From a virus: a stretch of 64,000 nt of DNA. Position numbers and translations under genes: made by a program. A model generated the notes under the pieces. That model saw only the letters and a program-made list of their open reading frames with translations. It had not been told where the DNA came from and searched no databases. This document shows, piece by piece, positions 3,363 to 64,000 of the stretch; positions within the stretch are counted from its first letter, which is position 1, and each line of letters starts with the position of its first letter. The stretch is from the IMG/VR virus record IMGVR_UViG_3300024319_000005, positions 35,223 through 99,222 of that record; one strand, written 5' to 3'.

Positions 3363-6300
3363 TTAATAGTTGTTTTGTACTAAATTAATCCATGCATAGG
3401 TAGTGGCTCCTGTTTGCATACACATGTCTGCATAACTATTGTTTCCACTTGTTCTATATCTTATTGTTCCTACTTTACTTGCTGATGCTGTATCTGTGTC
3501 ATTGGCAATTTGAACTCCCCCATCTACTTGTAATTTAGAAGAAGGATTTGCAGTTCCTATTCCTACGCTACTAGTTGTACCGTCTATTCTTAACATTTCA
3601 GTACTGCCAATATTAAAAGTAATATCAGGCTCTACAAAACCATTAGCTTCAGTAGTAAAAACTGTTCCTCCAACGTTTGAAGATATTTCAACATAGTTAT
3701 TATCATCTGTTCCTATAGTAGCTGAACCACCTGAAACTTGTAACTTTGAATCAGGACTCTCAGTCCCTATACCTAAATTACCATTTGAATCAAATACTGC
3801 TATAGCAGTACCATTTTTGTGGTATCTTAAATCTCCTGCATTATTTGCATCTAATGTCCACTTACTAGTACCGTCTGCGCTCTCTATAGCTAACCCTTCT
3901 GCTATACCATCTACACTAGCTTTTACATGTAACTTAGAAGATGGGTTAGTAATACCAGATCCTATTTTTCCAGCAGCAGTAAAATTAGTAGATACAGCTC
4001 CTGACCCAGTAACATCTAAAGTTACAAGAGGATTAGTATTATTAATACCTACTTGACTACCTTTTATAGTCATTGTAGTATTTATAACTCCAGACTGTGC
4101 GGTATTAAAGTTTAATTGACCTCTTTCATTACCATCTGTGTATACACTTGTTACACTATTTATAGAAGAAAAAACTTCACTGCTTGCTGCAGAATTTAAA
4201 GCTTTAAACTCTATTAAACCGCTTGTAGTATTATTGCCAGTTACTCCACTGTCTGCTATTGTTATTTTAGGGTCAGCGTTAGTTGTAACTAATAAATCTC
4301 CTGTAGTTGTTTCTCCTGTAATTTCAAAATCCCCATCTACTCCTAAATTGTTTATTACAGTTACATCACCATTAGTATCTATTCTTAACAACTCATTACC
4401 GTGAGCATCAAGATTACCATCTTTTATAGATAGCCCACTAGCATCAGTTAATATTGTCCCTTGACCTCCTGATGTTGTATCAAAAGAAAGTATAGGACTT
4501 TGCCCATTAAGTGTTAATGAAGCTCCATCTGCAATATTAGAAATAGCTACTGTAGGCTTTATAGTAGTAGATGCATTATCTCCTACTGTTATTTCAGAGT
4601 TAGGGCTTGAAACTCCTACTCCTAAGTTTCCATCTGATGTTATACGTACACGCTCTGTAGGCGTGTCTGAGTCAGTTCCATTACCAAATACAAGGCTACC
4701 TGCTCCATCATTATATATTCTTGAATCTAAGCCACCTGCAGGTACAGATAAAATTAGTTCAGGAGTAGCTGATGTTATTTTAACAGAACCCTGTACTAAA
4801 GCATCTCCTACTACTTCTAATTTTTCACTAGGTGTAGTTGTTCCTATACCTACATTAGAAGTAGAATCATCTACTACTAAACCTGAGCCATTAGATCCTC
4901 CTACAGTATAAAAATTAACTGCCCCATCAGCATCTCCATCAGCATATAAACCACCATAAAAAGTACCATTAGAAGATTTAAAACTATAAACTTTATTCCA
5001 ATCTGCATTTGGACTTCCTGTAATAGTTACACGCCCTCCTCCAGTTACTGAAAATGATCCATTTTCATTATTTTCACCTATTTGTAAAGGGTATATTGGA
5101 ATACTAGTACCTATTCCTAGATTACCTTCGTTATTTATTCTTACAACTTCTCTATTCTGTGGAGAAACATTTCCTGTAGTATAAAATGCTAGTGCGCCTT
5201 TTGAGCCAAAAGCATTGTCTGATACTGAAGCAATTCTTGCCATAATATCATTAGTACTTCCTGGTGCAGTAGAGTTAGCTTTAAAATCAAGTGAGCCTGT
5301 AATATCTCCTTCAGACATAGCAAATAATCCTCCAGTAGCTCCTCCTGTTATTGTTACAGTTGAAGTTGTACTGTCGTTTACTATTTCTAATTCTGTTAGT
5401 GGGGTAATAGTTCCTATGCCAACATACCCTTGACCATTAATAGACATTTTCTCAGTTCTATCTGCAGGTAAAAAAGTATTATTATCTTGAGTAAAGAATC
5501 CTAGTCTAGGGTTTAAAGTAGCAGGGTCACTGTCAGTATTAATGTTTCTTATTTCTGAACCATACCACTCAACACCTGCACTATTTTTACTATTTAAAGT
5601 AATACCTACATACTCACCGTCAGCATCTGCTCCACTAGTAAAAGTTGCTATATTACCATTAGTTCCTGCGTTATCTACAGATAACTTTGATGTAGGAGAA
5701 GAAGTACCTACTCCTAAGTCTCCTTCTATAATAGCTCCATTTGTAGGAGCTGCAATATTATTATATCCAGTACCTACTCTTAAGTTACCTTCTATGTCTA
5801 GTTTAGAAGTAGGACTTGAATCTCCTATTCCTATATTATTGTTATTTTCAGTTACAACGCTGTCTTCAATTGTGTTTGAATCAGCCCATTTAGTTAATTT
5901 ACCTGCAGTACCAGTACCGTCTATTTTTTCATCTATTAAAATCTGTTGAGCATCTTGCTCATCCTTTAGTACTTTACCTTGACTAGCAGCTAAACTAATA
6001 GTGTTATCAGTTGAATCTAAACCATCATAAACATCTCTTTGTGCTATAGTAGTATCAACTGCATTACCATTATAAGTAGGTAAGCCATTTACATCTTCAC
6101 CAAAGTTATCTAAAACTGATTTATTAGCATGGGTGTGTGTACCTAATCCTATATAAGAAGTTACAGTACCATCAGCTAATAGTATTTCATCTACAGTTCC
6201 TCCATCTTTAATAAAGGCATTACTTTTTATATTGCCATCTACTTCTAAAGCTTCAGATGGACTTTGAGTTCCTACTCCTACATTACCTCCTAAAGGGTTT

Positions 6301-23361: not shown

Positions 23362-23732
23362 TGTTTAATCTTTATTGGTAATGTTAATTTAATTTCTTTT
23401 TTTTGCGCTATTAAATGTACTAAAGGAGAAAATATTCTAGATAAAGTACCATCTTCACCTATGATTTGCTTTTTAATAAGTTGCTTTCTAACATTAGCTA
23501 TATGCTGCTTACTCATATACATTTCTTTACTTATCTCATCTAAAACACCTACTCCCTTACATTTAAACTCCGTACCTTTAGACATTAAATATGCTGTCAT
23601 GTCAAGTTGCTTGTCTGTTAGTATGTTTTGCGTTTCATTTAAAATAAGTAAGTAATACCTGTAAAATTGTAGCTCAGTAGTTTCTTTACTAGCTGTACTA
23701 CTAAGCGTTGGTTGTAATAAGTTTAATTCCAT
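23358..23732 (-). CDS. Winged-HTH DNA-binding protein, first gene of the late arm
   Basis: LTDKQLD...EISKEMYMSKQHIANVRKQLIKKQII. Confidence 0.65.
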   Translation of the reverse strand: MELNLLQPTLSSTASKETTELQFYRYYLLILNETQNILTDKQLDMTAYLMSKGTEFKCKGVGVLDEISKEMYMSKQHIANVRKQLIKKQIIGEDGTLSRIFSPLVHLIAQKKEIKLTLPIKIKQ

Positions 23733-23746
23733 AATCTTTTGTTTTG

Positions 23747-24067
23747 TTAGTTCCTAGGTATACCTATCCCCCTGGAAATTTTGTCTTTCTTGAGAGATAC
23801 TCTCGTAACTCCGTTATTAACCTGTAACTTCTACTCACTGTACGTCACCACTTACGTGGTTACACCCTTGAAGGTACGTCTATATCAACCCTTAGTATTA
23901 TTCCTTCCTAAGTTTTATATACAGGCAATTTTTGTTATTATCGGGGACATTTCAACCATTATGTTTCTCTGTTATCTCAAGAGCATAGTCTATAACCCAA
24001 CGTCTGAACTTGTGCTTTCTATAAGGATAGATGCTATTAACCAAGTTGTAATTAGTAGTTGAACTAA
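23747..24067 (-). ncRNA. Candidate ~320-nt structured leader or ncRNA
   Basis: Three nested long-range helices plus local hairpins between the promoter at 24078 and ATG 23732 (see findings). Confidence 0.5.
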
Positions 24068-24077
24068 TATAACAATG

Positions 24078-24109
24078 CAAATATAAAACGAATATCTGGA
24101 TTATCCTAA
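24078..24109 (-). promoter_or_regulatory. Bacteroidota sigma promoter for the late arm
   Basis: Minus strand TTAG-N20-TATATTTG (-7 exact, -33 with one mismatch). Confidence 0.7.
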
Positions 24110-24318
24110 TTTTTTAGCACTTATTTTTAAAAAACTTTTAATCGAAGGAGAGTACTTATAAATAAGGGGTTGGGTTCATTTGAGGGTAGTGCATTAGAGC
24201 TTAAATATAAATTACATTATTTAAAAAATGGAAATATGGCGTAAAAAGTTGCCTAAAATAAAAAATTTTTTTTTTTAAAAAAATGGATTTGCGTATAGAT
24301 AACCTCCGTCGATGTATA

Positions 24319-24342
24319 CAAACAATTACCCCAAACTAATTA
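24319..24342 (+). promoter_or_regulatory. Conserved 24-nt box, copy 1 (candidate vRNAP early promoter)
   Basis: CAAACAATTACCCCAAACTAATTA, 75 nt upstream of the first plus-strand gene. Confidence 0.55.
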
Positions 24343-24416
24343 TTGACAGAATTGTACCCCCAGGGTACGATTCATAATTTTTATCGAAAGCTTTCTGCTT
24401 TCAAAAATTTCGTACT

Positions 24417-24740
24417 ATGACTTTTAATGATTTGTTAGACACTCTTAACGTTAACTCTCTTTCTTTAACAATGCAGAAAGATTTAGACGGTATTGAGACT
24501 GGGTATGCTACTCAGTGGGATGCTTCTACTCGTACGAGAGTAGTTATGTCTCCTGAAGCCCTTGCAGGTGCTTCAGACCCTTCTGTTAACAACTTCGTTG
24601 TTATTCCTTCTTCATTAGTTTCTAAGGACAAGACTGTCCTTAACAAAGAGACTGGTGCTGAAGAAACTATTAAGGGACAACCTTATGTGAATAACTTCGT
24701 TATTCTCGGTGAGCCAACTATTACGTTTGGCAGACACTAG
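24417..24740 (+). CDS. Hypothetical early protein
   Basis: 107 aa with an A-rich translation start region; followed by a cUUCGg hairpin at 24754-24777. Confidence 0.8.
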   Translation: MTFNDLLDTLNVNSLSLTMQKDLDGIETGYATQWDASTRTRVVMSPEALAGASDPSVNNFVVIPSSLVSKDKTVLNKETGAEETIKGQPYVNNFVILGEPTITFGRH

Positions 24741-24785
24741 ACTTTGATACACTTCCTCTGAGCTTCGGCTCAGGGGATTAAAGCT

Positions 24786-24820
24786 TGACCTGAACATGTC
24801 GCAAACTGTTCTATTTTTTT
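24786..24820 (+). ncRNA. H-type pseudoknot plus U tract
   Basis: TGAC-CT-GAACA-T-GTCG-CAAAC-TGTTC-TATTTTTTT. Confidence 0.6.
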
Positions 24821-24821
24821 G

Positions 24822-24922
24822 TAGTACATTGGAGATAATACATACGACGGTATGAATCCATAGCATAACTGGGGTCGAAAATGATAAGTCAACGATGTAC
24901 TTATTGATGCGCCAATGTACTA
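24822..24922 (+). ncRNA. Candidate ~100-nt structured RNA
   Basis: 11-bp perfect closing stem TAGTACATTGG/CCAATGTACTA with internal hairpins. Confidence 0.5.
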
Positions 24923-25019
24923 TTTTTACCTAACGGTAAAAACTTGTCACTTTTAAAAAGTGTTATGACATCGTAGTTATAATTACGTTACGGTACATTT
25001 ACTAATCTTTAAATAATTC

Positions 25020-25190
25020 ATGATTATGATGCATTTGGATACTGTTATTAAACTAGACAGTTTACAAGACCTTTGGACTATTGACACTAATGCTCAGTTT
25101 GAGACTATGAGTGGTATAGATACTGAGGGTACTTACATAGTCTTTTATAAGATAGGTAAGCAATACTACAGTGTAAGACTAAACTCTTAA
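25020..25190 (+). CDS. Small hypothetical protein (56 aa, not in track)
   Basis: MIMMHLDTVIKLDSLQDLW...YYSVRLNS*; a pseudoknot follows the stop. Confidence 0.6.
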   Translation: MIMMHLDTVIKLDSLQDLWTIDTNAQFETMSGIDTEGTYIVFYKIGKQYYSVRLNS

Positions 25191-25196
25191 TAAGCT

Positions 25197-25231
25197 TGAC
25201 CTGAGTATGTCGCAAAAGACTCAATTTTTTT
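25197..25231 (+). ncRNA. H-type pseudoknot plus U tract (paralog of 24786)
   Basis: TGAC-C-TGAGT-AT-GTCG-CAAAAG-ACTCA-ATTTTTTT; stem 2 covaries with the 24786 copy. Confidence 0.6.
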
Positions 25232-25254
25232 CTTAACCTTTAGAACATTACGTT

Positions 25255-25326
25255 ATGGAATACACAATAGAAGAACTCATTGCAGAGGTACAAGCTTTAA
25301 CTGATTACTTAACTTGGCTAGATTAG
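25255..25326 (+). CDS. Acidic micro-protein (23 aa)
   Basis: MEYTIEELIAEVQALTDYLTWLD*; could form an amphipathic helix. Confidence 0.4.
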   Translation: MEYTIEELIAEVQALTDYLTWLD

Positions 25327-25365
25327 CCAGGTTAAACAGTTGGTTAAATACCTTTAGAAAGAGTC

Positions 25366-25443
25366 ATGATATCGTAGTTTTTGGTTAACATCTTAACCAG
25401 GAATCATGACATCGAAGTTTCCTGACTCCTGACTCCTGACTCC
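25366..25443 (+). repeat. ATGAYATCGWAGTT direct repeats and (CCTGACT)3 tandem
   Basis: Copies at 25366 and 25406 (third at 24965) flank the hairpin TGGTTAA-CATC-TTAACCA; 7-mer x3 at 25421-25441. Confidence 0.7.
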
Positions 25444-25628
25444 TTATTCTTTTACTTGCTAAATTATATAATTATGTTACACCTAAAAATTGTATTCTTT
25501 TTCTATCTTATACTATCTATATGCTGCTTTACTACAATATTCGTAGGAGATTTACCTTATATAAGCCTTACCGCTACAATAGGACTAACCGTAGTCACTG
25601 TTACCGTAGGTCAATGCATCCAACGATG

Positions 25629-25652
25629 CAAACAACCTCCCCAATCTAATTA
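25629..25652 (+). promoter_or_regulatory. Conserved 24-nt box, copy 2
   Basis: CAAACAACCTCCCCAATCTAATTA. Confidence 0.55.
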
Positions 25653-25811
25653 ATGGGGTTCGTCCTTGAATAATTCTACTGGATTTACGTAGAATTTTTA
25701 ATTTTTGTTGGTAAATAGGTTACGTTGGGATTAGTACCAACCATACCTTTTACCCTCTTTTTGACACTTACTTATAATCACATTCCTAATGAATAATTAA
25801 ATTCTTTTAAA

Positions 25812-25970
25812 ATGAAAGACTTTCTATCAATCCTATATTTAGTTATAGCTCTATCAATACTTCTTATTGGTTCTTTAACTATTATACTTATACTTTCAGA
25901 TTATCCAGAGATGATATTTGCTAGTATAGCTGTATATTTTACTTTCAACTATTTAGTAGACAAGGTCTAA
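25812..25970 (+). CDS. Small membrane protein (52 aa, not in track)
   Basis: MKDFLSILYLVIALSILLIGSLTIILILSDYPEMIFASIAVYFTFNYLVDKV*; two hydrophobic segments. Confidence 0.6.
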   Translation: MKDFLSILYLVIALSILLIGSLTIILILSDYPEMIFASIAVYFTFNYLVDKV

Positions 25971-26020
25971 GTTCTAACCTAGTAATAGAACGTAATTATA
26001 ATATCAAAATATATTTTCAA

Positions 26021-26521
26021 ATGAAATACTTTATAACAATACTTACATTATTATCTATTACTAATTTCACTTATTCTCAAGACTATAGTTATGTAGATAA
26101 ACTATCTAACACTAACTATACTGAGTGGAATGGTCAAGTAGGACATACTAGTATAGAAAAACCTGTACGAGCTGTAATAGAATACCAAGGCAATTACAAT
26201 TTTATATTTAACTTAGTATTAAGTTTAGAAACTAAAGACAAAGGGTTTTTTACTTTACCTTTTAAAGCTACACATAGCACTGCTTTTGATGGCGAAAGTG
26301 GAACAGTTATCCTTAAATTAAAGGATTTTGGTAGTCCAGCTTTGTTTATAAAAATACAAATACCAAACAAGCATGGCTTTCAATGTATAGTACATTACTT
26401 ATACATTAAATCTTTTATAAATGATGTACCTCTTAGAATAGTAATAAAAGATCAAAAGATTATAGACATAATAGATACTCTTACTTCTTCAATAAATAAA
26501 CAAGAGTATTATGGTATATAA
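26021..26521 (+). CDS. Secreted hypothetical protein
   Basis: Signal peptide MKYFITILTLLSITNFTYS|Q. Confidence 0.7.
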   Translation: MKYFITILTLLSITNFTYSQDYSYVDKLSNTNYTEWNGQVGHTSIEKPVRAVIEYQGNYNFIFNLVLSLETKDKGFFTLPFKATHSTAFDGESGTVILKLKDFGSPALFIKIQIPNKHGFQCIVHYLYIKSFINDVPLRIVIKDQKIIDIIDTLTSSINKQEYYGI

Positions 26522-26669
26522 AGGATGGCAGATAGAAGAAGATGATTGGTTCAAAGACAATTATGTTGCTTGGGATTTAAATGATTGTGATAATCACAAT
26601 ATACTGCACAGTATTTCTCTAGAATCTATTAAAATAGAAATAGATGAGTACATTGACGATTATAATTAA
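26511..26669 (+). CDS. Small acidic protein (52 aa, not in track)
   Basis: MVYKGWQIEEDDWFKDNYVAWDLNDCD...EIDEYIDDYN*. Confidence 0.6.
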   Translation: MVYKGWQIEEDDWFKDNYVAWDLNDCDNHNILHSISLESIKIEIDEYIDDYN

Positions 26670-26687
26670 TGCCTTGAAATAACAGGC

Positions 26688-26716
26688 GAGTTTGGCAACT
26701 ACTCTAAATAAGTTGC
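26688..26716 (+). ncRNA. H-type pseudoknot
   Basis: GAGT-TTG-GCAACT-ACTC-TAAATA-AGTTGC. Confidence 0.6.
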
Positions 26717-26788
26717 ATTTACCTCAGTACAACATAGCTTAAGTAATCGTTAAGTAATATTGTTGTACTGGGTATTTTAAACAACAGT

Positions 26789-26926
26789 ATAGCGTCTCTT
26801 TTATGAGTGAGGTTAGATAGATAGGTAAGGTAACTATGTTACGTGAGCATGGAGTAGGATTGCAATTAAGCAATAAACTGAAATACGCTTTACTTACTAA
26901 TGAGAGTTCGAGTCTCTTGCGCTATA
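26789..26926 (+). ncRNA. tRNA-like RNA (acceptor stem and T-arm, enlarged core)
   Basis: ATAGCGT/GCGCTAT+A acceptor stem stacked on GAGAG-TTCGAGT-CTCTT T-arm; followed by a T tract. Confidence 0.65.
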
Positions 26927-26967
26927 TTTTTTTATTTCCTAACATCATTATTAAATTTATATAAAAA

Positions 26968-27342
26968 ATGAAACTTATTGACTATATCGTAATACTTTAC
27001 ATTATAATTTTTCTAACTTATGTACCATACAAATCTTACTGTATGTATTTAGATAATTTACCAACTAAGAGTTCTGTAGAATATTCATATACAGAACAAG
27101 CAAAAGTGTACATAGGAAAAGATAAATTAGAGCTTGAAGTTACATATTGTAACGACAATACTGAAATAAACTCTATGAAATCTGAAATAATAGGTGACTA
27201 CGTATTTGTAGGGTCATATGAAGATATGGAATCTATTATTAATTTATGTTTAGAGAACCAACCTATCGATAATACTGTTACATATCTTAGAGATTACTAT
27301 AAAAATATAGTAATAACATCATTAAATAACATTAAAATATAA
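26968..27342 (+). CDS. Hypothetical membrane-anchored protein
   Basis: N-terminal hydrophobic helix. Confidence 0.7.
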   Translation: MKLIDYIVILYIIIFLTYVPYKSYCMYLDNLPTKSSVEYSYTEQAKVYIGKDKLELEVTYCNDNTEINSMKSEIIGDYVFVGSYEDMESIINLCLENQPIDNTVTYLRDYYKNIVITSLNNIKI

Positions 27343-27347
27343 CAAAA

Positions 27348-27896
27348 ATGAGTAAACTATTTAATTTTAAAGCAACAGTATGGGAAACAGTAGTTGTACC
27401 TGAACATTTAGAAGATAAAATTGCAACTTTAATTTCTAATGGTATTATACAATCTAGAGAAGAGCTAGAAAACTATCTAAAATCAGTAGGTGAAACTGCT
27501 GAGGTTTACTTTGAATCTTCATTTAATGATAGTCCGTTACCACCTTCATTTACACAAATGAGTGTAGCGCAAAATAGTGGTGACCCTACAATAGAAGTTC
27601 TTCACGATAATAAAATCATCTGGGATAATACTTTACCACTTACTACAGATAGTTATAAAATATGTATACTTACAAAAACAATTAAAGGATTGTCAGAAGA
27701 AAGTATATATGGTACTGAAGAGCAAGCACTAGAGTCAGCATACAAAGATGTAATGAATCCAGTGTATTTTAGAGCTCCTAATAGCAATGATACTCTATCA
27801 AATTACATAGATGAATACTACGAGTATGTATCTACAACGTTAGACAATCTAACTGATTACAATATATCTGTTAGATACTTAAACATTAACCTTTAA
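27348..27896 (+). CDS. Hypothetical protein
   Basis: ORF with A-rich start context. Confidence 0.7.
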   Translation: MSKLFNFKATVWETVVVPEHLEDKIATLISNGIIQSREELENYLKSVGETAEVYFESSFNDSPLPPSFTQMSVAQNSGDPTIEVLHDNKIIWDNTLPLTTDSYKICILTKTIKGLSEESIYGTEEQALESAYKDVMNPVYFRAPNSNDTLSNYIDEYYEYVSTTLDNLTDYNISVRYLNINL

Positions 27897-27909
27897 AATT
27901 TATATACAA

Positions 27910-28170
27910 ATGGATAGAAATAATTTTCATACTAAGACTGACTTAACTTATGATTGGATAATAAAGTCAAAGATAGCTACTGAGCAAGAAATTAGATTAG
28001 TTACTTCTATAATAGGTTATAATTTAGATTCTTTAAATGATATTATATTTGCTAGAACAGCTTATAAAGATATGACACAACATCCAGCAGGAGAAATACA
28101 GTCTGTAACAGAAGATCAAATATCTTCTCTATCTGAACCTATTAATAACATAGAATTTATAGCATGGTAA
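27910..28170 (+). CDS. Hypothetical protein
   Basis: ORF overlapping the kinase start. Confidence 0.7.
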   Translation: MDRNNFHTKTDLTYDWIIKSKIATEQEIRLVTSIIGYNLDSLNDIIFARTAYKDMTQHPAGEIQSVTEDQISSLSEPINNIEFIAW

Positions 28171-28769
28171 ATATAAAACACAATCTTATCGGAATCTCTG
28201 GCAAAATCAGCTCAGGAAAAGATTTAGCAGGTAAGATATTAAACGATCTTTCAGGAAATATTTTTGAAAACAAAAAATTTGCAGATAAACTTAAAGATAT
28301 AGTTTGCTTACTTATTGGATGTACTAGAGAGCAATTAGAAGATAGAGAGTTTAAAGAAAAAGAACTCGGTGAAGAGTGGAGGCAATATTTTAATGACGAT
28401 TATGATTTAGTTTATGAAAAAGAAAGCACATTTTCTTCATTATTAACACCTCGTAAACTTCTACAACTTTTAGGTACTGAATGTGGTAGACAAATTATCC
28501 ATCCTAACATTTGGGTAAATGCTTTGTTTGCTGATTATACTCCTTTAACATCTTGGCTAGTAACAGATGTTAGATTCCCTAACGAATGCCAAGCTATTAA
28601 AAATAGAGGTGGTATTGTTATAAAAATAAATAGAGACTTTGATGTAGTAGACAACCATTCATCGGAAACAGCTCTAGACAATTACAATGGATTTGATTTT
28701 GTTGTAGATAACAATGGAAGTATAGATGACCTTACTAATAACTTAATAAAAATAATTAACAATGATTAA
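28164..28769 (+). CDS. Deoxynucleoside monophosphate kinase
   Basis: IGISGKISSGKD, FADKLK, PRKLLQLLGTECGR, TDVRFPNE, HSSE. Confidence 0.92.
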   Translation: MVNIKHNLIGISGKISSGKDLAGKILNDLSGNIFENKKFADKLKDIVCLLIGCTREQLEDREFKEKELGEEWRQYFNDDYDLVYEKESTFSSLLTPRKLLQLLGTECGRQIIHPNIWVNALFADYTPLTSWLVTDVRFPNECQAIKNRGGIVIKINRDFDVVDNHSSETALDNYNGFDFVVDNNGSIDDLTNNLIKIINND

Positions 28770-29031
28770 TTTCAAAAAGTATGATGTAGAAAATCCACAA
28801 GTGTGGTCACAGTTCAAAAGATTTGCATTTGAAGCTAAAGAAAAAGGCTTTAATAATTACTCTGCAAAAGGTATATTTGAATTGATTAGATGGCATACAG
28901 GAGTAAAAGGTACAGGTAATTATAAGTTATGTAATAACTATACACCTGATTATGCTAGAAAGATGATGAGAGAACACCCTGAGTTTGAGGGTTTCTTTAG
29001 GGTTAAACAACTTAAAGCTAAAAGATCGTGA
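28762..29031 (+). CDS. Conserved phage hypothetical protein
   Basis: YSAKGIFELIRW...LCNNYTPDYAR pattern. Confidence 0.7.
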   Translation: MINFKKYDVENPQVWSQFKRFAFEAKEKGFNNYSAKGIFELIRWHTGVKGTGNYKLCNNYTPDYARKMMREHPEFEGFFRVKQLKAKRS

Positions 29032-29873
29032 AGATAGTACCTTGGGTTAACAAAACGATAACACCTAAACCAAACGGTAGGAGCAGTGATTTTATTTCTG
29101 CTTCCTACATTTGGGGATGTAACGGTGGTTGTAAAAACTATTGTTATGTCTATCGTAATCAGAAGCAAACAGTAAATGTTGCTACCAATTTAGATCAAAT
29201 TGAAGCGGCTGTTACCAAACTAGCAAATAAATTGCCTTTGCACAAGCCACCTAATCAAATATCACAGAATGGTTTGTATTATCTTGATATTGGGTGTAAT
29301 TCTGATGTAGCACTATACAGTAAAAGAATTGAATTAGAAAGAATACTTAAATTTTATGACAATAATTTAAAACTTAACACTACTTTTGCTACTAAATACT
29401 CTAAATTACTGACACTAGATGTAAATCATTTTAATAAAAAACCTAGAGTTCGTGTATCATTGATGCCTGAACGACTAGCTACTGTATTAGAAAGTGGTTG
29501 TACATCAGTACCTGAACGTATTACTGACATAAAAAGATTACAAAGTCTTGGTTGGGAAGTACAGATTAATTTTAGTCCAGTTGTATTATATAATAACTGG
29601 CAAAGAGACTACAATGAGTTGTTTAAGATTATAGCTAATCAAGATATAGATGTACCTTGTGAAGTTATTATGTTAACAGGATCTGTAGCACCAAATATTC
29701 CTGAGTTTGAGCATAATTACTTGTTAAGTAATGAATTTCAAGAAGAAAAAATAACAAAATATGGTTCTAAAGCTAAAAGATATAACTATCATATGAAAAA
29801 AGGAGCTATAGAAAACTTTAAAACTATTTATTCAAAGTATTGGGATGTAAAAAACATCAGATACATTTTTTAA
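29028..29873 (+). CDS. Spore-photoproduct-lyase-like radical SAM protein
   Basis: GCNGGCKNYCYV, DIGCNSD, TFATKY, RVRVSLMP, INFSPVV. Confidence 0.85.
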   Translation: MKIVPWVNKTITPKPNGRSSDFISASYIWGCNGGCKNYCYVYRNQKQTVNVATNLDQIEAAVTKLANKLPLHKPPNQISQNGLYYLDIGCNSDVALYSKRIELERILKFYDNNLKLNTTFATKYSKLLTLDVNHFNKKPRVRVSLMPERLATVLESGCTSVPERITDIKRLQSLGWEVQINFSPVVLYNNWQRDYNELFKIIANQDIDVPCEVIMLTGSVAPNIPEFEHNYLLSNEFQEEKITKYGSKAKRYNYHMKKGAIENFKTIYSKYWDVKNIRYIF

Positions 29874-29918
29874 TTTAAAAAATATTAATTAATCTTAAAC
29901 TTTAAAAATTACCACATT

Positions 29919-30125
29919 ATGAAAATATCTATATTGAAAGAATTAAATCAATATGTAAACGATTTGATAAAAGATAAAGTACTAACAAAAGAAAATTTTG
30001 ATGATTGGCATTATATCGCATTTAATCATTTAGATCCATTTGGAGCGGTTCAAATATGCAATAAGTACGAAATATACGGCAAAGAAGTTATTTCTTCGAT
30101 ACAAGACAATTTTCACAAATATTAA
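29919..30125 (+). CDS. Hypothetical protein
   Basis: ORF with A-rich start context. Confidence 0.6.
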   Translation: MKISILKELNQYVNDLIKDKVLTKENFDDWHYIAFNHLDPFGAVQICNKYEIYGKEVISSIQDNFHKY

Positions 30126-30252
30126 AATATTAAAATGTCTTTACTTTAGCTATAGGCTAAACTGGGAGTCCATCATAAAGGTACAAAGAATTTTTGATAT
30201 AACCATTTGGAACGTGGCTTTGCATTTACCTTGCATCATTGTACAGTTGATG

Positions 30253-30276
30253 CAAACCACACCCCCAATCTAATTA
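30253..30276 (+). promoter_or_regulatory. Conserved 24-nt box, copy 3
   Basis: CAAACCACACCCCCAATCTAATTA. Confidence 0.55.
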
Positions 30277-30277
30277 C

Positions 30278-30310
30278 AGGTTATCTCTGACCTTAAACAG
30301 AGTCGTTTTT
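30278..30310 (+). ncRNA. H-type pseudoknot
   Basis: AGGT-TAT-CTCTG-ACCT-TAAA-CAGAG-TCGTTTTT. Confidence 0.6.
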
Positions 30311-57708: not shown

Positions 57709-60700
57709 TTATGATTTAGAGCAATCTTCTGCGTTAGACGTATCTTCATTAAAGGCTTCTCCAGGATTTACGTGCTCTACATCAAAGTAAGAATCATAGT
57801 CTTGAAAACCTGACACCTGTGAATCTTCTAAAGAAGCTATAGATTCTTTAGTCTCTTGCACACTTGACTGTCCTTTACTACTTGCCTTAGTTCCTATAAA
57901 AGTATGTAGGTTTGCGTCTTTACTTTGATACATAGGAAATTCAATTCCTCTACCTCCACTAAAAGTTTTTGTATCTGCTACTACATATACTCCATTACCA
58001 TTGTGAATCAATGGGTAAGTTACACGTTTACTAGTTTGTTTATTATTTATAATATCATCAAAAAATACTTGTTTACTAGCATAAGCATAGTCTGGTAAAA
58101 ACCCCTCACTATCTTGCATTGCTCTTTTTTCTGCATCATCCATTATAACTCGTTGTGTACCAGTTTCAGTTTTTACTATATTACCTCGTAACATATAAGT
58201 AAATTCTGGAGCATACTTTCTTACTATATCTAACGCTGAATCACTACCACTTAGTTCCCCAAAACTCGTTTTATATTTAGATCTTAGCTTTAAAGGCATA
58301 ATACTCCAGAACGATCCTGGTAATATTTCAAACCCTTGCTTTAGCATTTGATAATCTGCAAGTAATTCTGCAAATCTTCTAGTTTCAGAATTCTCATACA
58401 TCTCAGACCACATATCCATAAGCATAGTAGTAGTAGTTGGATCTGCATTTCCTAAACTAAATGAATACATTTTATCTGTACCTCTTTTTACTAATCTCTT
58501 TTTAATACGTTTAGTAAAATCATTGTGCTTACCTCCTTCTACTATTTTTTTATACTCTGCTTCTAGATCAGGAATAGTATTCTTAAAGTAATTAGGGTCT
58601 TGCATTTCCATAGATTTAACAACTAGCCTTGTATTTAACCTTGAATATAACGCTCTTAAAGATTTTTCATTTAAAGGCTTATTTGTCACCTTTTTCATTT
58701 GTTCTATAGCGTTCCTAAAATACTTGTGATCATAAGGTAAAATACCATCTAAATGTTTTTTACCTTCAACTAACCCTTGCTCTATTTTATTAATAACCCA
58801 AGGTGCTATTTTCTGTACTGTTACATGTTTAAACTTATTCTCTTGCATTTTAGCATTGAACTTATCGTACTTTTCTTTATTTAAATAAGTCTGAGCATAA
58901 GATGGAGAAACTCCAGTATCTGCTAATTTAGTAATTGCTAATACATCAGATATTTCAGAAGCCATTGCCATTAAAGCAAAAGTAGATTCTAGATTTCTTT
59001 TACCATCTTTAAAATCTTTTATTACATCCATATCAAAAGTTGGAGTATAACTGTCAGGTAAGTTCTTTGCAATGAAACCGTAATCTTGAGCTAATATTTC
59101 CATAACTTCTTGTCTGCTTTTACCTTGAGCTTTTCTAGCAAACTCTTTAACTGCAGGTTGATTAACTATAAACAAAGCTTCATTCATACTTCTACCTAAA
59201 CTTAGTAATACATTAAGTACAGGTAAAGTTACTTGGTTTATATTTAACTGAGCAGCTAAAGGATCTTTTACATTATCTACTGCTTGTGCTAGAGGTTCTG
59301 CTCTATTTCTAGATACTTTTTTACCTTCAGTATCTTCTGTTGCAGATAAACTCTTAATCCTTTCAGACATCTCACCATTTTCTATAAACCTAACTCCAGT
59401 TTTTAACCCCATCTGTACTAATGGAGCTCCAGTGTTAAAGTTAGCAGATATACCAATATTGTTTGCTCCTGTAAGAGTATTCTCTAAAGCATTAGCATTA
59501 GCAGATACTCCTAAGAAAGCTTCTTTATCGTACTTTGGATTTGTTTCTGCTAATTTAGCTTTATGTTCATCTCTAAAACTTTGTAGCTGTTGGTATCCTC
59601 CAGGATTTAATCCTTCAAGTGGAGTAGCGTGCTTAAATTTAATCATAAGATCTAATATAGTGTTATCTATACTTTCAATCTTGTTTCCATTTGCGTCTAC
59701 TTCATATTGGAATCCAAATAGTTTATCAATATCATAATCAAAACCAGAAATATCTGGAGATTCTGCAGGCATTATAATACCATTAGCCATACTTTCTGGT
59801 AGTATACCTATAGGTCTAATTACAAACATAGAGTATTTATCCTCAGTAGGTATTCTATACATAAGCATTTCTTTAAATCCTTCTGGAATTAAATCTAATG
59901 GGATTCTCTCACCAAAGTTATCTTTTAAAAGAGCATCCATAGATGGGTGCATACCTTCAGGTATCCAAGCTTCAAATATTACTTTTGTAATATTACCATC
60001 TTTATCTTTTTCTATAATTACTTCTGGCATATTTTTCTTAGACAAACCATATGAAGATACGTTATACATTGAGTTACCATTTACTTTCTGTATTGTAACG
60101 TTGTTACGTACTATAGAAGATAGTACAGGCTCTATAATACTTAACAACTGAGGATCATCTATACTTAATTCATTTTCTTTAATTGCTTCTTGTATCTCTA
60201 AAGGAAATTTATCTAAGTGAGTTAAAATAGTTTTTCTTAATGATTCTTTATCTTTAAATATTTCTTTTACTTTGTTACTTGCAGCATTAGTCTTTGCTTG
60301 TAAAGCTTCTTGGTATTGCTTCTTTTCTTCTGCCATACCTTGAACATCATTAGCTATTAGCTTAGTTAATTGTATAGCTAACTTCTGCACTTCATTTGGA
60401 CTAATGTGCGGAGTAGTATCAAGTTGTGCTTTCCAATTAGTCATATCCATAGTTCCTCTACCATCCATAAGACCAATCTTAAACACAGAGTGAGGAGCAT
60501 ATAAATCTATATACTTTGGATTAGTTTCTGATTGGATAGATGCAACTCTACCTTCAAAATCAAAATCAAACTTTCCTTTACCTGTAATAGTCCATCCAAA
60601 CTTTTTTAATATATCCTTCATCATTTGATTAGTAGCTGCAAACGTAGGGTCTAATACTATTTCAGAATCTTTCTTCTGTATAGGATTTAATAATCCAGAT

Positions 60701-63700
60701 GCATTTTCATGTAGCCCAAAGTAATGTGGCTTATAGATTACGTGCTTATGCTTTTTTATTAGAGTCATAAACTCTTCTTTTGTTTGTGGCATGTCTAACA
60801 CTCCCATACCTGCTAAACGTACTATAGAAGCAAAAGGATCTATCATAGATTGACCATCTTGTACTGTAGCATAGTATTTATATATAGGGTTACCACTTTT
60901 GTCTGTACCTACTTGTTTTTTCTTTCCTATACCTAAACCTAAAGCTTGTAAGTCTTTACTTACTTCTACGTCTAAGCCAGGTAATGTAGTAACACCAGGC
61001 GTATCATTATAAGACTCTACATGTATTCTTGTAATAGGCTTACCCCCTACTTGCATTGCAGATTTACTAAGAAATTCTCCTGGAGAATATACTTGCTTAA
61101 ATCTTTTTACAAAGTCAGTAGCTAACGTACTATCAATACTTTTAAAGTTAGCAGGATCTCCTGTGTAAAGTAAAGTGTACTTAGCTTGTGTTTCTAAAGT
61201 TTGAGCTACAAATAATTTTAATTCTAAATCACTATAAGTATCTTTAATATCTGCTTCTTTTAGTTCTTTCTTTAGATTTGCAGTTAAGTTAGCTATTTCG
61301 TTCTTTACACTACTTGCAGCTTTACCAGTACCATCATCTTTAATTAAGTATCTTCCAGATTTGTTTTTATTATAATTATCACTACCACTTACAGTAGTAT
61401 CTTTCATTCTAATACTCTCTTGCTCAAATATATTAATTAAATTTTCTTCTACTACTTCTAAAGACTCAGCAATATTATTTCCTTTAGGTACTTCAATAGC
61501 AATCATAGTATGACCATCTCCCATTACAGGAGTTGGAATTGCTCTAGCATTTTTCTTAGATGTAAAGTTAAAGAATAAAGCTAATGATGTTTGTAAGTAT
61601 TCTTTCTTTGTCATTTGATCATAATCAGAAGACAAACCCTCAGTCTTAATACTATCTATTTCATATAGAGTTGCTTCTGCTAAAGCTTTTGCACCTCCTA
61701 ATTGATCTAATACTTTACACATAGGGTCATTAGAATATCTGTCAGCATATCCATTTTCATTTTTAATTAACCTTGACTGCTCCATATAAATAGAAGAGGT
61801 ATATCTATGTGCATATTTTAATTTACCATTTACTCTATATGCTGATTGATAGTAATTAGGTAGTAATATTACAAGCCTATCTAAGAATGCGTTTACATTC
61901 TCAAAATTAAATTTAGTATCTTTCCCTCCTTTCCCTGTTTTTCTACCAAGTATAAGACCATTTAACTTATCAACTTGTTCTGTATTAACAATTATACCTG
62001 CTTTAGCAAGTGTAGCTTTTAATTCTTCACCTTCTAATAACTTATATGGATCTGAACCATAACCAACACTTTCAACTAAATCTATTAACTGCTGCCTCAT
62101 AATACTATGCATAGTGTTGTTATTAGCATTAAGAGCTTTTAACTCTTTCTTATCATTAACCATAACTAAAATAGGATTTACTTTCCTTTTCTGTGCTAGT
62201 CTAAAGAATGTAGCTTGTAGCTTAGGCTCACCTACTAATTCACTGTATACTTGCTCTAATACCTCTACTTTATTACTATAGTATTTTGATTCTGGATGTG
62301 GATTTAATCTTTCCATCATATCAGCTTCACTAATACTACCATGGGTAACTTGTAAAAACTTATTATAGATATTTAAAAAATCTTCTTTTACATCAAACCC
62401 AAAAGAATCTATCTCACCAGAGTTAGAATCTACGTTTTGCAGTATGTGCATTGCATCTTCTGATAATGATGTAGTTGGATTTTCTTCTGCTTTCATCCAA
62501 GACTGAGTTTGTCTACCACTAATATCTCTACTAGCAGAACCTTCAGTAACATTGTCAGCTTCTTGAGCATCCGCAGTAGCTTCATTTATTTCTTTAATAA
62601 TAGTACTTAACCTTACTCCTCTTTCTTTTAGCCTTGCTTGCATAGCTATTAAGAAATCATTTTTATGGTTATTATAAGCATCAGCTATTACTTGATAATC
62701 TGCATCGTATGTTACTAGATCTTGTAATACTTTCTCCATATTAGTGTCAGAAAGAGCTTTAACTAAGGTTGTGTCATTTCTCTTTGCCCAACCTCTAATA
62801 CCATCTACTAAAGTTATTACAGAATCTTTTAGTCTTTTTGCTTTAGACGTTCCTGCAGGTGCTCCTGCCATTAAAGCATCTTTTAAAGTACTAATACTAT
62901 ATAGTGCAGTTCCTTCAGTCATTGCTGGGTGTGCAGCTACAGTACCTAAACCTAAAGATAGTTTATAGTTAAGAGTATCTAAATCATTAATGTTATCAGT
63001 AAATAAACCTCTAGTCATGTGATATACTTTCTTAAAGAAATTATATATCTGAGCACCTAATCTTTTTAGTATATTACCATTAGATAAACCTGCTAGTCTA
63101 TTTATTTCAAAAGTCTCGTATTGCTCTGCTAAAAATTCTAAGATTCTAGTAGTAGGATCTAAAGCTGCATCTTGAGATTGTTTACTTATATTTTTATTTG
63201 TCGTACTCTTAGGAGTAGCAGTCGTTAAACTTGTATTAAACGCTTCTTGAGTAATCTTATTATTAGGGTTAGCTTTGTTATAAGCTTTAAGTCCTGCTCT
63301 TAATACTTGCTCTCTTTGTTTAGGAGTTAATACTACTTCAGTAAGTACATGCATAGCCTCGTGATAAACAGTACTACTGTTAGCACCTTCTCTAATACGT
63401 ACTAAAGCTTTAGTAAATACACCCCATGCATTAGTACCCCCTATATTATTTAAATCTTTTACTAAAGATATAGGGAAATTAGGAAACCTAGATTTAAACC
63501 AATCTAAAGTTTCTTTAGTTACTACATTACCTTTACCTTTATCTAATGTACTTAAATCCCTTCGACCTTTTCTTTTTTGTGTTGTTGGTTGACCAAGACT
63601 TAAAAAGTTTTTAGCCTCAACACCTAACTGACTTAATACAGAATCTATTTCCTTCTGAGAAATAGCAAGGCCACTCATTTTACCAGGTACTCCTTCAAAA

Positions 63701-64000
63701 TTACCAGTTAAAAAGAATTTTACAGACCCATCTGGTTTTGTTACCTTTATTATTTCAGAACCATTTTCATTGTTTTTAATTGTTTGATTTATAATTCCTC
63801 CTTTTATTGTTTTTTGCTCTAAAGTGTACTTGCCTTTAACTTTAGTAAAAGTAACAACCTCACTAGCTTGTTTTGTTGGTTGTATTTCTGAAAAGTATTT
63901 GTCAGTATTAATTACTTTGCTAGAATCTACACTGCTTACAGTTTTATCTATATTGCTTTTCCAAGAATCTAATCCTTTAGTATTATCACCTCTTTTAGTA
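57709..64000 (-). CDS. Virion RNA polymerase (crAss / phi14:2 gp66 type), 5'-truncated by the window
   Basis: Catalytic GFDYDIDK (59725-59739), YRIPT, QDGQ, N-terminal zincin YHEAMH. The frame stays open from 63678 to the window end, so the true start lies outside. Confidence 0.9.
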   Translation of the reverse strand, partial: TKRGDNTKGLDSWKSNIDKTVSSVDSSKVINTDKYFSEIQPTKQASEVVTFTKVKGKYTLEQKTIKGGIINQTIKNNENGSEIIKVTKPDGSVKFFLTGNFEGVPGKMSGLAISQKEIDSVLSQLGVEAKNFLSLGQPTTQKRKGRRDLSTLDKGKGNVVTKETLDWFKSRFPNFPISLVKDLNNIGGTNAWGVFTKALVRIREGANSSTVYHEAMHVLTEVVLTPKQREQVLRAGLKAYNKANPNNKITQEAFNTSLTTATPKSTTNKNISKQSQDAALDPTTRILEFLAEQYETFEINRLAGLSNGNILKRLGAQIYNFFKKVYHMTRGLFTDNINDLDTLNYKLSLGLGTVAAHPAMTEGTALYSISTLKDALMAGAPAGTSKAKRLKDSVITLVDGIRGWAKRNDTTLVKALSDTNMEKVLQDLVTYDADYQVIADAYNNHKNDFLIAMQARLKERGVRLSTIIKEINEATADAQEADNVTEGSASRDISGRQTQSWMKAEENPTTSLSEDAMHILQNVDSNSGEIDSFGFDVKEDFLNIYNKFLQVTHGSISEADMMERLNPHPESKYYSNKVEVLEQVYSELVGEPKLQATFFRLAQKRKVNPILVMVNDKKELKALNANNNTMHSIMRQQLIDLVESVGYGSDPYKLLEGEELKATLAKAGIIVNTEQVDKLNGLILGRKTGKGGKDTKFNFENVNAFLDRLVILLPNYYQSAYRVNGKLKYAHRYTSSIYMEQSRLIKNENGYADRYSNDPMCKVLDQLGGAKALAEATLYEIDSIKTEGLSSDYDQMTKKEYLQTSLALFFNFTSKKNARAIPTPVMGDGHTMIAIEVPKGNNIAESLEVVEENLINIFEQESIRMKDTTVSGSDNYNKNKSGRYLIKDDGTGKAASSVKNEIANLTANLKKELKEADIKDTYSDLELKLFVAQTLETQAKYTLLYTGDPANFKSIDSTLATDFVKRFKQVYSPGEFLSKSAMQVGGKPITRIHVESYNDTPGVTTLPGLDVEVSKDLQALGLGIGKKKQVGTDKSGNPIYKYYATVQDGQSMIDPFASIVRLAGMGVLDMPQTKEEFMTLIKKHKHVIYKPHYFGLHENASGLLNPIQKKDSEIVLDPTFAATNQMMKDILKKFGWTITGKGKFDFDFEGRVASIQSETNPKYIDLYAPHSVFKIGLMDGRGTMDMTNWKAQLDTTPHISPNEVQKLAIQLTKLIANDVQGMAEEKKQYQEALQAKTNAASNKVKEIFKDKESLRKTILTHLDKFPLEIQEAIKENELSIDDPQLLSIIEPVLSSIVRNNVTIQKVNGNSMYNVSSYGLSKKNMPEVIIEKDKDGNITKVIFEAWIPEGMHPSMDALLKDNFGERIPLDLIPEGFKEMLMYRIPTEDKYSMFVIRPIGILPESMANGIIMPAESPDISGFDYDIDKLFGFQYEVDANGNKIESIDNTILDLMIKFKHATPLEGLNPGGYQQLQSFRDEHKAKLAETNPKYDKEAFLGVSANANALENTLTGANNIGISANFNTGAPLVQMGLKTGVRFIENGEMSERIKSLSATEDTEGKKVSRNRAEPLAQAVDNVKDPLAAQLNINQVTLPVLNVLLSLGRSMNEALFIVNQPAVKEFARKAQGKSRQEVMEILAQDYGFIAKNLPDSYTPTFDMDVIKDFKDGKRNLESTFALMAMASEISDVLAITKLADTGVSPSYAQTYLNKEKYDKFNAKMQENKFKHVTVQKIAPWVINKIEQGLVEGKKHLDGILPYDHKYFRNAIEQMKKVTNKPLNEKSLRALYSRLNTRLVVKSMEMQDPNYFKNTIPDLEAEYKKIVEGGKHNDFTKRIKKRLVKRGTDKMYSFSLGNADPTTTTMLMDMWSEMYENSETRRFAELLADYQMLKQGFEILPGSFWSIMPLKLRSKYKTSFGELSGSDSALDIVRKYAPEFTYMLRGNIVKTETGTQRVIMDDAEKRAMQDSEGFLPDYAYASKQVFFDDIINNKQTSKRVTYPLIHNGNGVYVVADTKTFSGGRGIEFPMYQSKDANLHTFIGTKASSKGQSSVQETKESIASLEDSQVSGFQDYDSYFDVEHVNPGEAFNEDTSNAEDCSKS

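Follow-up and report, generated by a model that had tools for sequence, protein, structure and literature searches.

CrAss-like phages, which rank among the most abundant known viruses, inject an RNA polymerase at the onset of infection. The literature we searched defines no promoter to date for this crAss-type virion RNA polymerase (vRNAP), and the word "promoter" is absent from a 2023 review of the order. Here we analyze three copies of a 24-nucleotide (nt) sequence, referred to as boxes 1, 2 and 3, in an uncultured marine crAss-like phage. The window, that is, the whole stretch of DNA analyzed, is 64,000 nt long and comprises bases 35223-99222 of one 99,222-bp phage contig (IMG/VR record IMGVR_UViG_3300024319_000005). 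We give about an even chance to the reading that we favor, in which each box would be an early promoter that is linear, specific to the phage and followed by a leader hairpin, with the injected crAss-type polymerase as its probable reader.

Several described systems are relevant to this locus. The promoters of phage N4 have a GC-rich heptamer centred at -11 with inverted-repeat flanks; a hairpin is extruded on the template strand, and the enzyme is T7-like (PMC4496689). In the Thermus phage P23-45, the two-barrel vRNAP gp96 is fused to the tape measure protein and uses a conserved linear AT-rich promoter motif. The pre-early starts of P23-45 cluster at one genome end, and a separate 26-nt motif is associated with termination (PMC10770324). 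In the crAss-like Cellulophaga phage phi14:2, the gp66-type enzyme makes rifampicin-resistant early transcripts, and the early arm starts with long non-coding stretches that correspond to abundant early RNAs (bioRxiv 10.1101/2020.03.07.982082). T4-type phages carry promoter-early stem-loop (PeSL) repeats, of the sigma70 type and present in dozens per genome, that border variable cassettes of small genes (PMC2839356).

Results

Three G-free boxes at the start of the early arm

An earlier sequence-only reading of the window had reported three 24-mers on the plus strand, at positions 24319, 25629 and 30253, that are identical at 19 of 24 positions. All three are present exactly as quoted. They follow the pattern CAAAC-N-A-NNN-CCCCA-NN-CTAATTA and are free of G in every copy, the first G residues being found 2-9 nt downstream of the box. 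When the copies from relatives (see below) are included, the consensus becomes CAAAC-N-A-NNN-CCC(C)(A)-NN-CTAAT(T/C)A. The whole box is asymmetric, lacks an inverted repeat and is found in a single orientation throughout. With the degenerate pattern and up to three mismatches allowed, the window contains three matches where shuffled sequences predict 0.01, and no fourth copy was found in the 99,222-bp genome when up to four mismatches were accepted.

Relatives were found through the DNA polymerase gene, which is located 850 nt downstream of box 3. These were a Tara scaffold (L134, polymerase identity 98%), a 69-kb ENA contig (L135, 96%), and a 79-kb IMG/VR contig (L118, identical to L136, 77%). 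L135 carries 3/3 boxes at orthologous places (2495, 3874, and 9133). In L134, a contig that begins just upstream of box 3, the orthologue of that box is at 817. L118 carries the orthologue of box 1 only, at 3692, with no other copy on the whole contig and none at the box 3 junction. The sequence-only reading expected boxes and upstream stems alike to be kept in relatives; this held for the boxes, with three in L135 and one each in L134 and L118, and did not hold for the upstream stems.

Box 1 (24319..24342, plus strand; exact match, 30.7 bits with a sequence model of the box) is located where the early arm begins, 74 nt 5' of the first early gene. This distance is 54-75 nt in all three lineages (window, L135, and L118), and none of them has coding sequence upstream of box 1 on the plus strand. 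Box 2 (25629..25652, plus strand; exact match) overlaps the last codons and the stop of a 59-codon open reading frame (ORF), and the next gene is 159 nt away. Box 3 (30253..30276, plus strand; exact match) is located 54 nt 5' of the first gene of the conserved replication module. The claim that the copies are confined to the start of the early arm was correct, as the plus-strand arm carries all three within its first 6.2 kb.

The positions of the boxes coincide with borders in the comparison between lineages. The first early gene (24417..24740, plus strand, 107 amino acids) is 93% identical to its L135 counterpart and 29% identical to that of L118, and it is the sole gene of the variable early region that is common to the window and L118. 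Apart from this gene, these two share only the genes after box 3 (60-77%), and everything between differs. Identity to L135 is 86-93% for the three ORFs that precede box 2 and 34-54% for the three that follow it. Box 3 is located at a swap border with L134 and L135, which is also where the homology to L118 resumes. Box 1 is thus found at the head of the arm, box 2 where a conserved leader module ends, and box 3 where the conserved replication module begins. An A/T tract (24256..24283) is located approximately 35 nt 5' of box 1; similar tracts are found 5' of the L118 box and 5' of a box look-alike in phi14:2, which is described below.

Conserved blocks and free spacers

Each box was divided into 18 block positions and six spacer positions. 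Between the orthologous boxes of the window and L135, 1/54 block positions and 7/18 spacer positions have changed (Fisher p = 1.5e-4). The rate in the spacers is comparable to the synonymous divergence of nearby genes (pS 0.27-0.70). We found no covariation between box positions. The variable positions ignore codon phase, and no reading frame is common to the three boxes. Since the blocks are held and the spacers drift freely, the conservation pattern indicates sequence-specific recognition of the box, that is, a nucleic-acid motif that would be read by a protein, and not base pairing. A mini-ORF, consisting of an ATG and seven codons in boxes 2 and 3, was considered and rejected because the frame differs in box 1 and the variable positions are without codon periodicity.

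When a sequence model was derived from all seven distinct copies, it recovered only the known ones in 423 kb of loci. Scans of IMG/VR with tighter patterns returned either nothing or the known L118 copy together with four unrelated chance matches, and thus no further lineage. A scan of IMG/VR with a 14-mer core gave chance matches only, none of which carried the upstream block. In the distant relatives identified via the DNA polymerase (L119-L133 and L137-L154) the box is absent and genes are packed upstream of the polymerase. A search with the first early protein retrieved its own cluster and the L118 contig, and no more. One additional sequence, CTGCTCCCNAACTA, has CCC-N-AACTA in common with box 1; it is an unconfirmed candidate box.

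Host-type promoter sequences

The host is probably a member of the Bacteroidota. A -7 box, TATATTTG, heads the late operon (24085, minus strand), and the same TAnnTTTG type is present in the middle promoters of phi14:2, which, read from sequence, are of this host type. On the plus strand between 24086 and 31121, no host-type TAnnTTTG -7 box was found between genes. Neither in nor beside boxes 1 and 2 is there a host Bacteroidota sigma-A promoter (-33 TTTG / -7 TAnnTTTG, with the TTTG approximately 19 nt upstream). A near-match to the host promoter, TACAGTTG, is located before box 3, and its TA is lost in L135. A sigma70-like sequence just after box 1 (TTGACA-17-TACGAT) was rejected because its -10 element is lost in L135.

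Two other features of the region were noted in this context. A 14-nt motif, ATGAYATCGWAGTT, occurs on the plus strand at 24965, 25366, and 25406, 5' of the second early gene and of the 59-codon ORF. In L135 it is found at 3565, 3602, and 3643, as three tandem copies approximately 38 nt apart, and its CGTAGTT core is similar to the host-type middle promoters of phi14:2. On the minus strand, the leader of the late operon (23730-24090), behind TATATTTG at 24085, is 87-100% identical to L135 and mostly 97-100%. This conservation far exceeds that of nearby coding sequence and is compatible with a large structured RNA.

DNA upstream of the boxes

The sequence-only reading had described all boxes as intergenic and had placed a shared layout of approximately 110 nt before copies 2 and 3, with a GGAG that could pair with the C-run of the box. 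Its individual elements were confirmed: CTTTAC and GGAG are literally found before copies 2 and 3, TTTA..GGAGA..CTTATAAATAAG precedes copy 1, and TGCATC/GATGCA hairpins run into boxes 2 and 3. The layout itself was not. Box 2 is not intergenic, as it supplies the final codons and the stop codon of the 59-codon ORF (25474..25653, plus strand), an uncalled ORF that is kept in L135 (3719-3898) with 86% amino acid identity. The 3' half of this ORF accounts for the approximately 110 nt before copy 2, which are hence coding. Before copy 3, homology with L134 and L135 starts only with a block of approximately 45 nt that travels with the box (30205..30252, plus strand). This block is as well kept as box 3 itself. 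Beyond it, the sequence of L134 and L135 is unrelated and includes a different gene, and both CTTTAC and GGAG are missing. The proposed pairing of GGAG with the C-run fails at copy 1, whose GGAGA is gone in L135.

The 59-codon ORF has a pN/pS (ratio of nonsynonymous to synonymous divergence) of 0.27 between the window and L135, compared with 0.18-0.54 for neighbouring genes and 1.19 for one other frame. It would encode two hydrophobic helices and a basic tail and is probably a small early membrane protein; no homologue was found in database searches. Substitutions in L135 disrupt the predicted RNA helices before box 2 but suit the reading frame, and predicted coding appears to fit the data before copy 2 better than structure does.

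Folding analyses gave a similar result. The approximately 110 nt together with the box reached z scores of only -2.1 and -2.5, and the 230 nt before box 1 had a folding z score of 0.0 and ordinary conservation. Hairpin A2 (TGCATC/GATGCA; 25615..25630, plus strand) abuts box 2 inside the 59-codon ORF, and hairpin A3 (8-bp stem; 30231..30255, plus strand) abuts box 3; their energies as DNA are -5.2 and -6.3 kcal/mol, respectively. The corresponding DNA values are -1.4 kcal/mol at box 1, -1.7 kcal/mol at box 2 of L135, and -0.6 kcal/mol at the L118 box, which is essentially no hairpin and which gives no fold as RNA. By DNA folding, the box-abutting hairpin is weak or absent in 4/7 copies. The apparent wobble change of A2 in L135, TGC to TGT, is a synonymous change in a Cys codon. 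The stem of A3 is identical in L134 and L135 and hence carries no covariation information. Where substitutions in the upstream stems give G.T pairs on the plus strand, they are A.C mismatches on the template strand.

Folded multi-stem DNA is thus unsupported, because the upstream stems are coding or not conserved, the GGAG is lost, and hairpin A is weak or missing in 4/7 copies. With the folded element not conserved, an N4-style hairpin on the template strand is disfavoured by these sequence comparisons. The alternative offered by the sequence-only reading, a family of structured non-coding RNAs composed of the approximately 110 nt and the box, is not borne out for the same regions, which are coding or not conserved, and Rfam scans matched no family.

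Hairpins downstream of the boxes

The most consistent companion of the box is a hairpin that starts 1-22 nt 3' of each copy and that is strong at box 1 only. Hairpin B1 (24349..24373, plus strand), with an 11-bp stem and a 3-nt loop, begins 6 nt after box 1 and has a z score of -4.15 in the window and -4.22 in L135. The two versions differ by three substitutions in the 3' arm, all of which are U-A/U.G exchanges that preserve pairing. L118 has a hairpin of other sequence at the same place (z score -2.4). Because B1 changes by U-A/U.G exchanges, which are A.C mismatches on the other strand, and because it survives sequence turnover, we conclude that it acts on plus-sense RNA.

Hairpin B2 (25672..25696, plus strand) follows box 2 and has an 8-bp stem and then a T-run, with z scores of -1.2 in the window and -3.0 in L135. 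In L135, an insertion of 18 nt gives B2 a 27-nt loop, and a C-to-T change gives a G.U pair. Hairpin B3 (30285..30302, plus strand), after box 3, is weak (5-bp stem, then a T-run; z scores -0.5 in the window and -0.8 in L135) and terminator-like. The T-runs after the B hairpins are absent in L118 and weak or not kept at box 3 of L135.

Two 40-nt elements, T1 and T2 (24781-24820 and 25192-25231, plus strand), are located directly 3' of the stops of the first two early genes. Each combines a conserved head of 25 nt with a covarying stem and a T7 run; both are present in L135 (2958 and 3392) and neither in L118. T1 and T2 are candidate early terminators and fit that role better than the boxes do.

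The early region holds further non-coding sequence. Approximately 70 nt after box 2 (25700-25770, plus strand) are the same in the window and L135 except for one mismatch at the very end; they contain a GTTGGTA/TACCAAC hairpin, and the synonymous divergence of the neighbouring genes is 0.3-0.7. A predicted three-way-junction RNA of approximately 100 nt is 76% identical between the window (24820-24925, plus strand) and L118 (4721-4823), with unrelated flanks. Six of its 29 predicted pairs have compensatory double changes; it is absent from L135, and it has no Rfam match. This RNA may correspond to the abundant early non-coding RNAs of phi14:2. In L118, a non-coding stretch of 1.4 kb (4092-5489) follows the first early gene and includes segments with tRNA-like T-arm and acceptor ends. 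ARAGORN called no such tRNA-like ends in the analogous region of the window (26789-26926).

Genome layout and candidate polymerase

A block of virion genes on the minus strand extends up to approximately 24080. It is followed by the plus-strand arm with replication and nucleotide-metabolism genes (24417 to approximately 53600), and after this arm by a minus-strand block with two giant genes. In a comparison of annotations this layout agrees with that of phi14:2. At the DNA level the two phages are not close, and a megablast search of the region against a phage DNA collection returned zero matches.

The candidate reader of the boxes is a homologue of the giant crAss-type RNA polymerase, encoded on the minus strand at 57709..64000 by an ORF that continues past the end of the window. 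In tblastn searches, crAss-like phage genes annotated as "putative RNA polymerase" matched this ORF with 25-27% identity (E 1e-19 to 1e-21). Its DYDID motif, at residue 1421, is of the same position class as the catalytic DFDID of phi14:2 gp66. No direct sequence match to structures in the PDB was found for this ORF. The polymerase encoded in the genome is of the gp66 type and not a T7-like single-subunit vRNAP.

A box look-alike in phi14:2

The first two blocks of box 1, written as ACAAT-N2-3-CCCC, occur once in the phi14:2 genome where 0.42 occurrences are expected, for a pattern that was picked post hoc. The match (NC_021806 position 98002, region 97947-98050, plus strand) reads ACAAT-N3-CCCCC followed by A-CTC. 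It is located at the head of the early arm, approximately 95 nt before g111 and 32 nt after an A/T tract, and it precedes by 9 nt a hairpin with a 7-bp stem and a 3-nt loop. A local alignment of the head regions of phi14:2 and the window was not significant. The look-alike might be the counterpart of box 1, and we treat it as a lead only.

Discussion

If the boxes are linear early promoters, the three short blocks CAAAC, CCCCA, and the AT-rich CTAATTA would be read as sequence, at fixed spacing and with free spacer bases. CTAATTA would then serve as the AT-rich melting element, and transcription would start at CTAATTA or a few bases beyond it. The downstream hairpin would be transcribed first and form the 5' leader of the message. 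Each copy would head one unit, in order the small leader module, the variable cassette block, and the replication module. By analogy, the box is most likely read by the injected crAss-type RNA polymerase, since early transcription in phi14:2 is resistant to rifampicin and P23-45 provides a precedent for a linear motif. We favor a promoter because it covers all three positions, whereas a terminator covers two, and an RNA element needs an unseen promoter for each copy. The early-promoter part of the sequence-only reading therefore stands: position, orientation, copy number, and conservation of the boxes fit it, and a crAss-type polymerase is encoded. Its other part, the folded multi-stem mechanism in the manner of N4, does not. 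A more specific version of the linear promoter is that the tripartite G-free box is the native promoter of the crAss-type two-barrel vRNAP and has a degenerate form in phi14:2. This proposal is tentative, and we would sooner doubt than accept it.

Several points weigh against a promoter. L118 copes with one box, so boxes 2 and 3 are dispensable for the arm. If the 59-codon ORF is real, box 2 lies within its mRNA and is certainly present in RNA too. In the window, each box is followed by a terminator-like hairpin and a T-run, and the vRNAP terminators of P23-45 bear a conserved 26-nt motif (PMC10770324). The authors of the phi14:2 study saw no common motif upstream of the early 5' ends (bioRxiv 10.1101/2020.03.07.982082). 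The ATGAYATCGWAGTT motif or the T1/T2 elements could be the true promoters. The comparative power is small, with four genomes bearing the box.

Among other explanations, the box might act in RNA: early transcripts would hold it unpaired between hairpins, as a C/A-rich stretch devoid of G to which a protein, the ribosome, or a partner RNA binds. The G-free box is indeed predicted to be unpaired between hairpins A and B, box 2 is part of the mRNA of the 59-codon ORF, and hairpin B evolves in the style of an RNA. Such a signal would place the real promoter upstream, for example in the approximately 45 nt before box 3, which are kept as well as the box, or in the 230 nt before box 1. The latter, however, have neither excess folding nor more than ordinary conservation, and the former keep no host-type promoter, given the loss of the TA of TACAGTTG in L135. 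As hairpin A is also missing in L118 and marginal at box 1, and Rfam gave no match, we consider an RNA signal unlikely. It is quite improbable, in our judgement, that the box makes the injected polymerase stop or pause by virtue of its sequence and so closes early units together with the hairpin and T-run. Box 1 heads the first early gene in three lineages and has no plus-strand gene upstream to end, the T-runs are lost in L118 and at box 3 of L135, the B2 loop of L135 has grown to 27 nt, and the better terminator-like pair, T1/T2, is already in place after the first two genes. A terminator nevertheless stays alive because the P23-45 paper reports a 26-nt motif at vRNAP terminators (PMC10770324); moreover, boxes 2 and 3 are at module ends, with box 2 at a stop codon, B1 and B3 are flagged as terminator-like, and a T-run follows B2.

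The box could also be a DNA site for something other than a polymerase, such as the operator of a phage regulator, a site for an IHF-like protein, or a recombination linker for swaps of early cassettes. TAATTA is palindromic, strain homology breaks before box 3, gene identity falls after box 2, and cassettes bordered by PeSL in T4-type phages are alike in this respect (PMC2839356). Against this, the whole box is asymmetric and always in one orientation, promoters too are expected at cassette borders, and no candidate binding protein was identified; we see little likelihood in such a site. Least probable by far is an N4-like promoter read as folded multi-stem single-stranded DNA composed of the approximately 110 nt and the box, a reading that the comparative data already contradict. 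In its favor, A2 and A3 fold stably as DNA, and gp66 of phi14:2 transcribed denatured phi14:2 DNA in vitro. The sequence upstream of copy 2 is nevertheless coding, that of copy 3 is conserved over only approximately 45 nt, the GGAG partner is lost in L135, and hairpin A is feeble at box 1, at box 2 of L135, and in L118. In addition, the substitutions are A.C mismatches on the template strand, and the conserved box has no inverted repeat.

A linear promoter, if true, would be the first for the class of crAss-type two-barrel vRNAPs, for which none has been defined so far in the literature searched. A short sequence with clearly distinguished conserved and free positions provides a template for in vitro initiation assays and for structures of promoter complexes, and the box would be useful for annotating early transcription units in uncultured marine relatives. 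The lack of support for folded DNA is informative too: the hairpins are outside the conserved signal here, and an N4-style hairpin mechanism should therefore not be assumed for this polymerase.

The arrangement resembles that of the N4 promoters P1-P3, in that three copies in the same orientation are located near the start of the early region of a podovirus that injects a giant RNA polymerase, and in that the signal is phage-specific and unlike host promoters. The resemblance does not extend to a GC-rich core with an inverted-repeat hairpin, which is lacking here. Unlike in N4, the box is linear and has neither G nor an inverted repeat, the hairpins beside it show no conservation as DNA, and the polymerase is of the two-barrel crAss type. 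T7-type promoters combine an upstream specificity region, an AT-rich melting element before the start, and a structured 5' leader, a logic similar to that proposed for the boxes, but both the polymerase family and the sequence are unrelated. As repeated putative promoters with a hairpin at strain-variable borders, boxes 2 and 3 may recall PeSL, with the differences that there are only three boxes and that they have no host-type (sigma70) promoter elements. Genome layout, polymerase type, and an early arm that opens with long non-coding stretches are common to the window and phi14:2; unlike here, no common early motif was reported for phi14:2, and the look-alike in that phage has the first two blocks only. 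The sequences and hosts of P23-45 are unrelated to those studied here, and its motifs were derived from cappable-seq and ChIP-seq, whereas the boxes were derived from sequence alone. Like P23-45, however, the window combines a family of boxes with a distinct terminator-like family (T1/T2).

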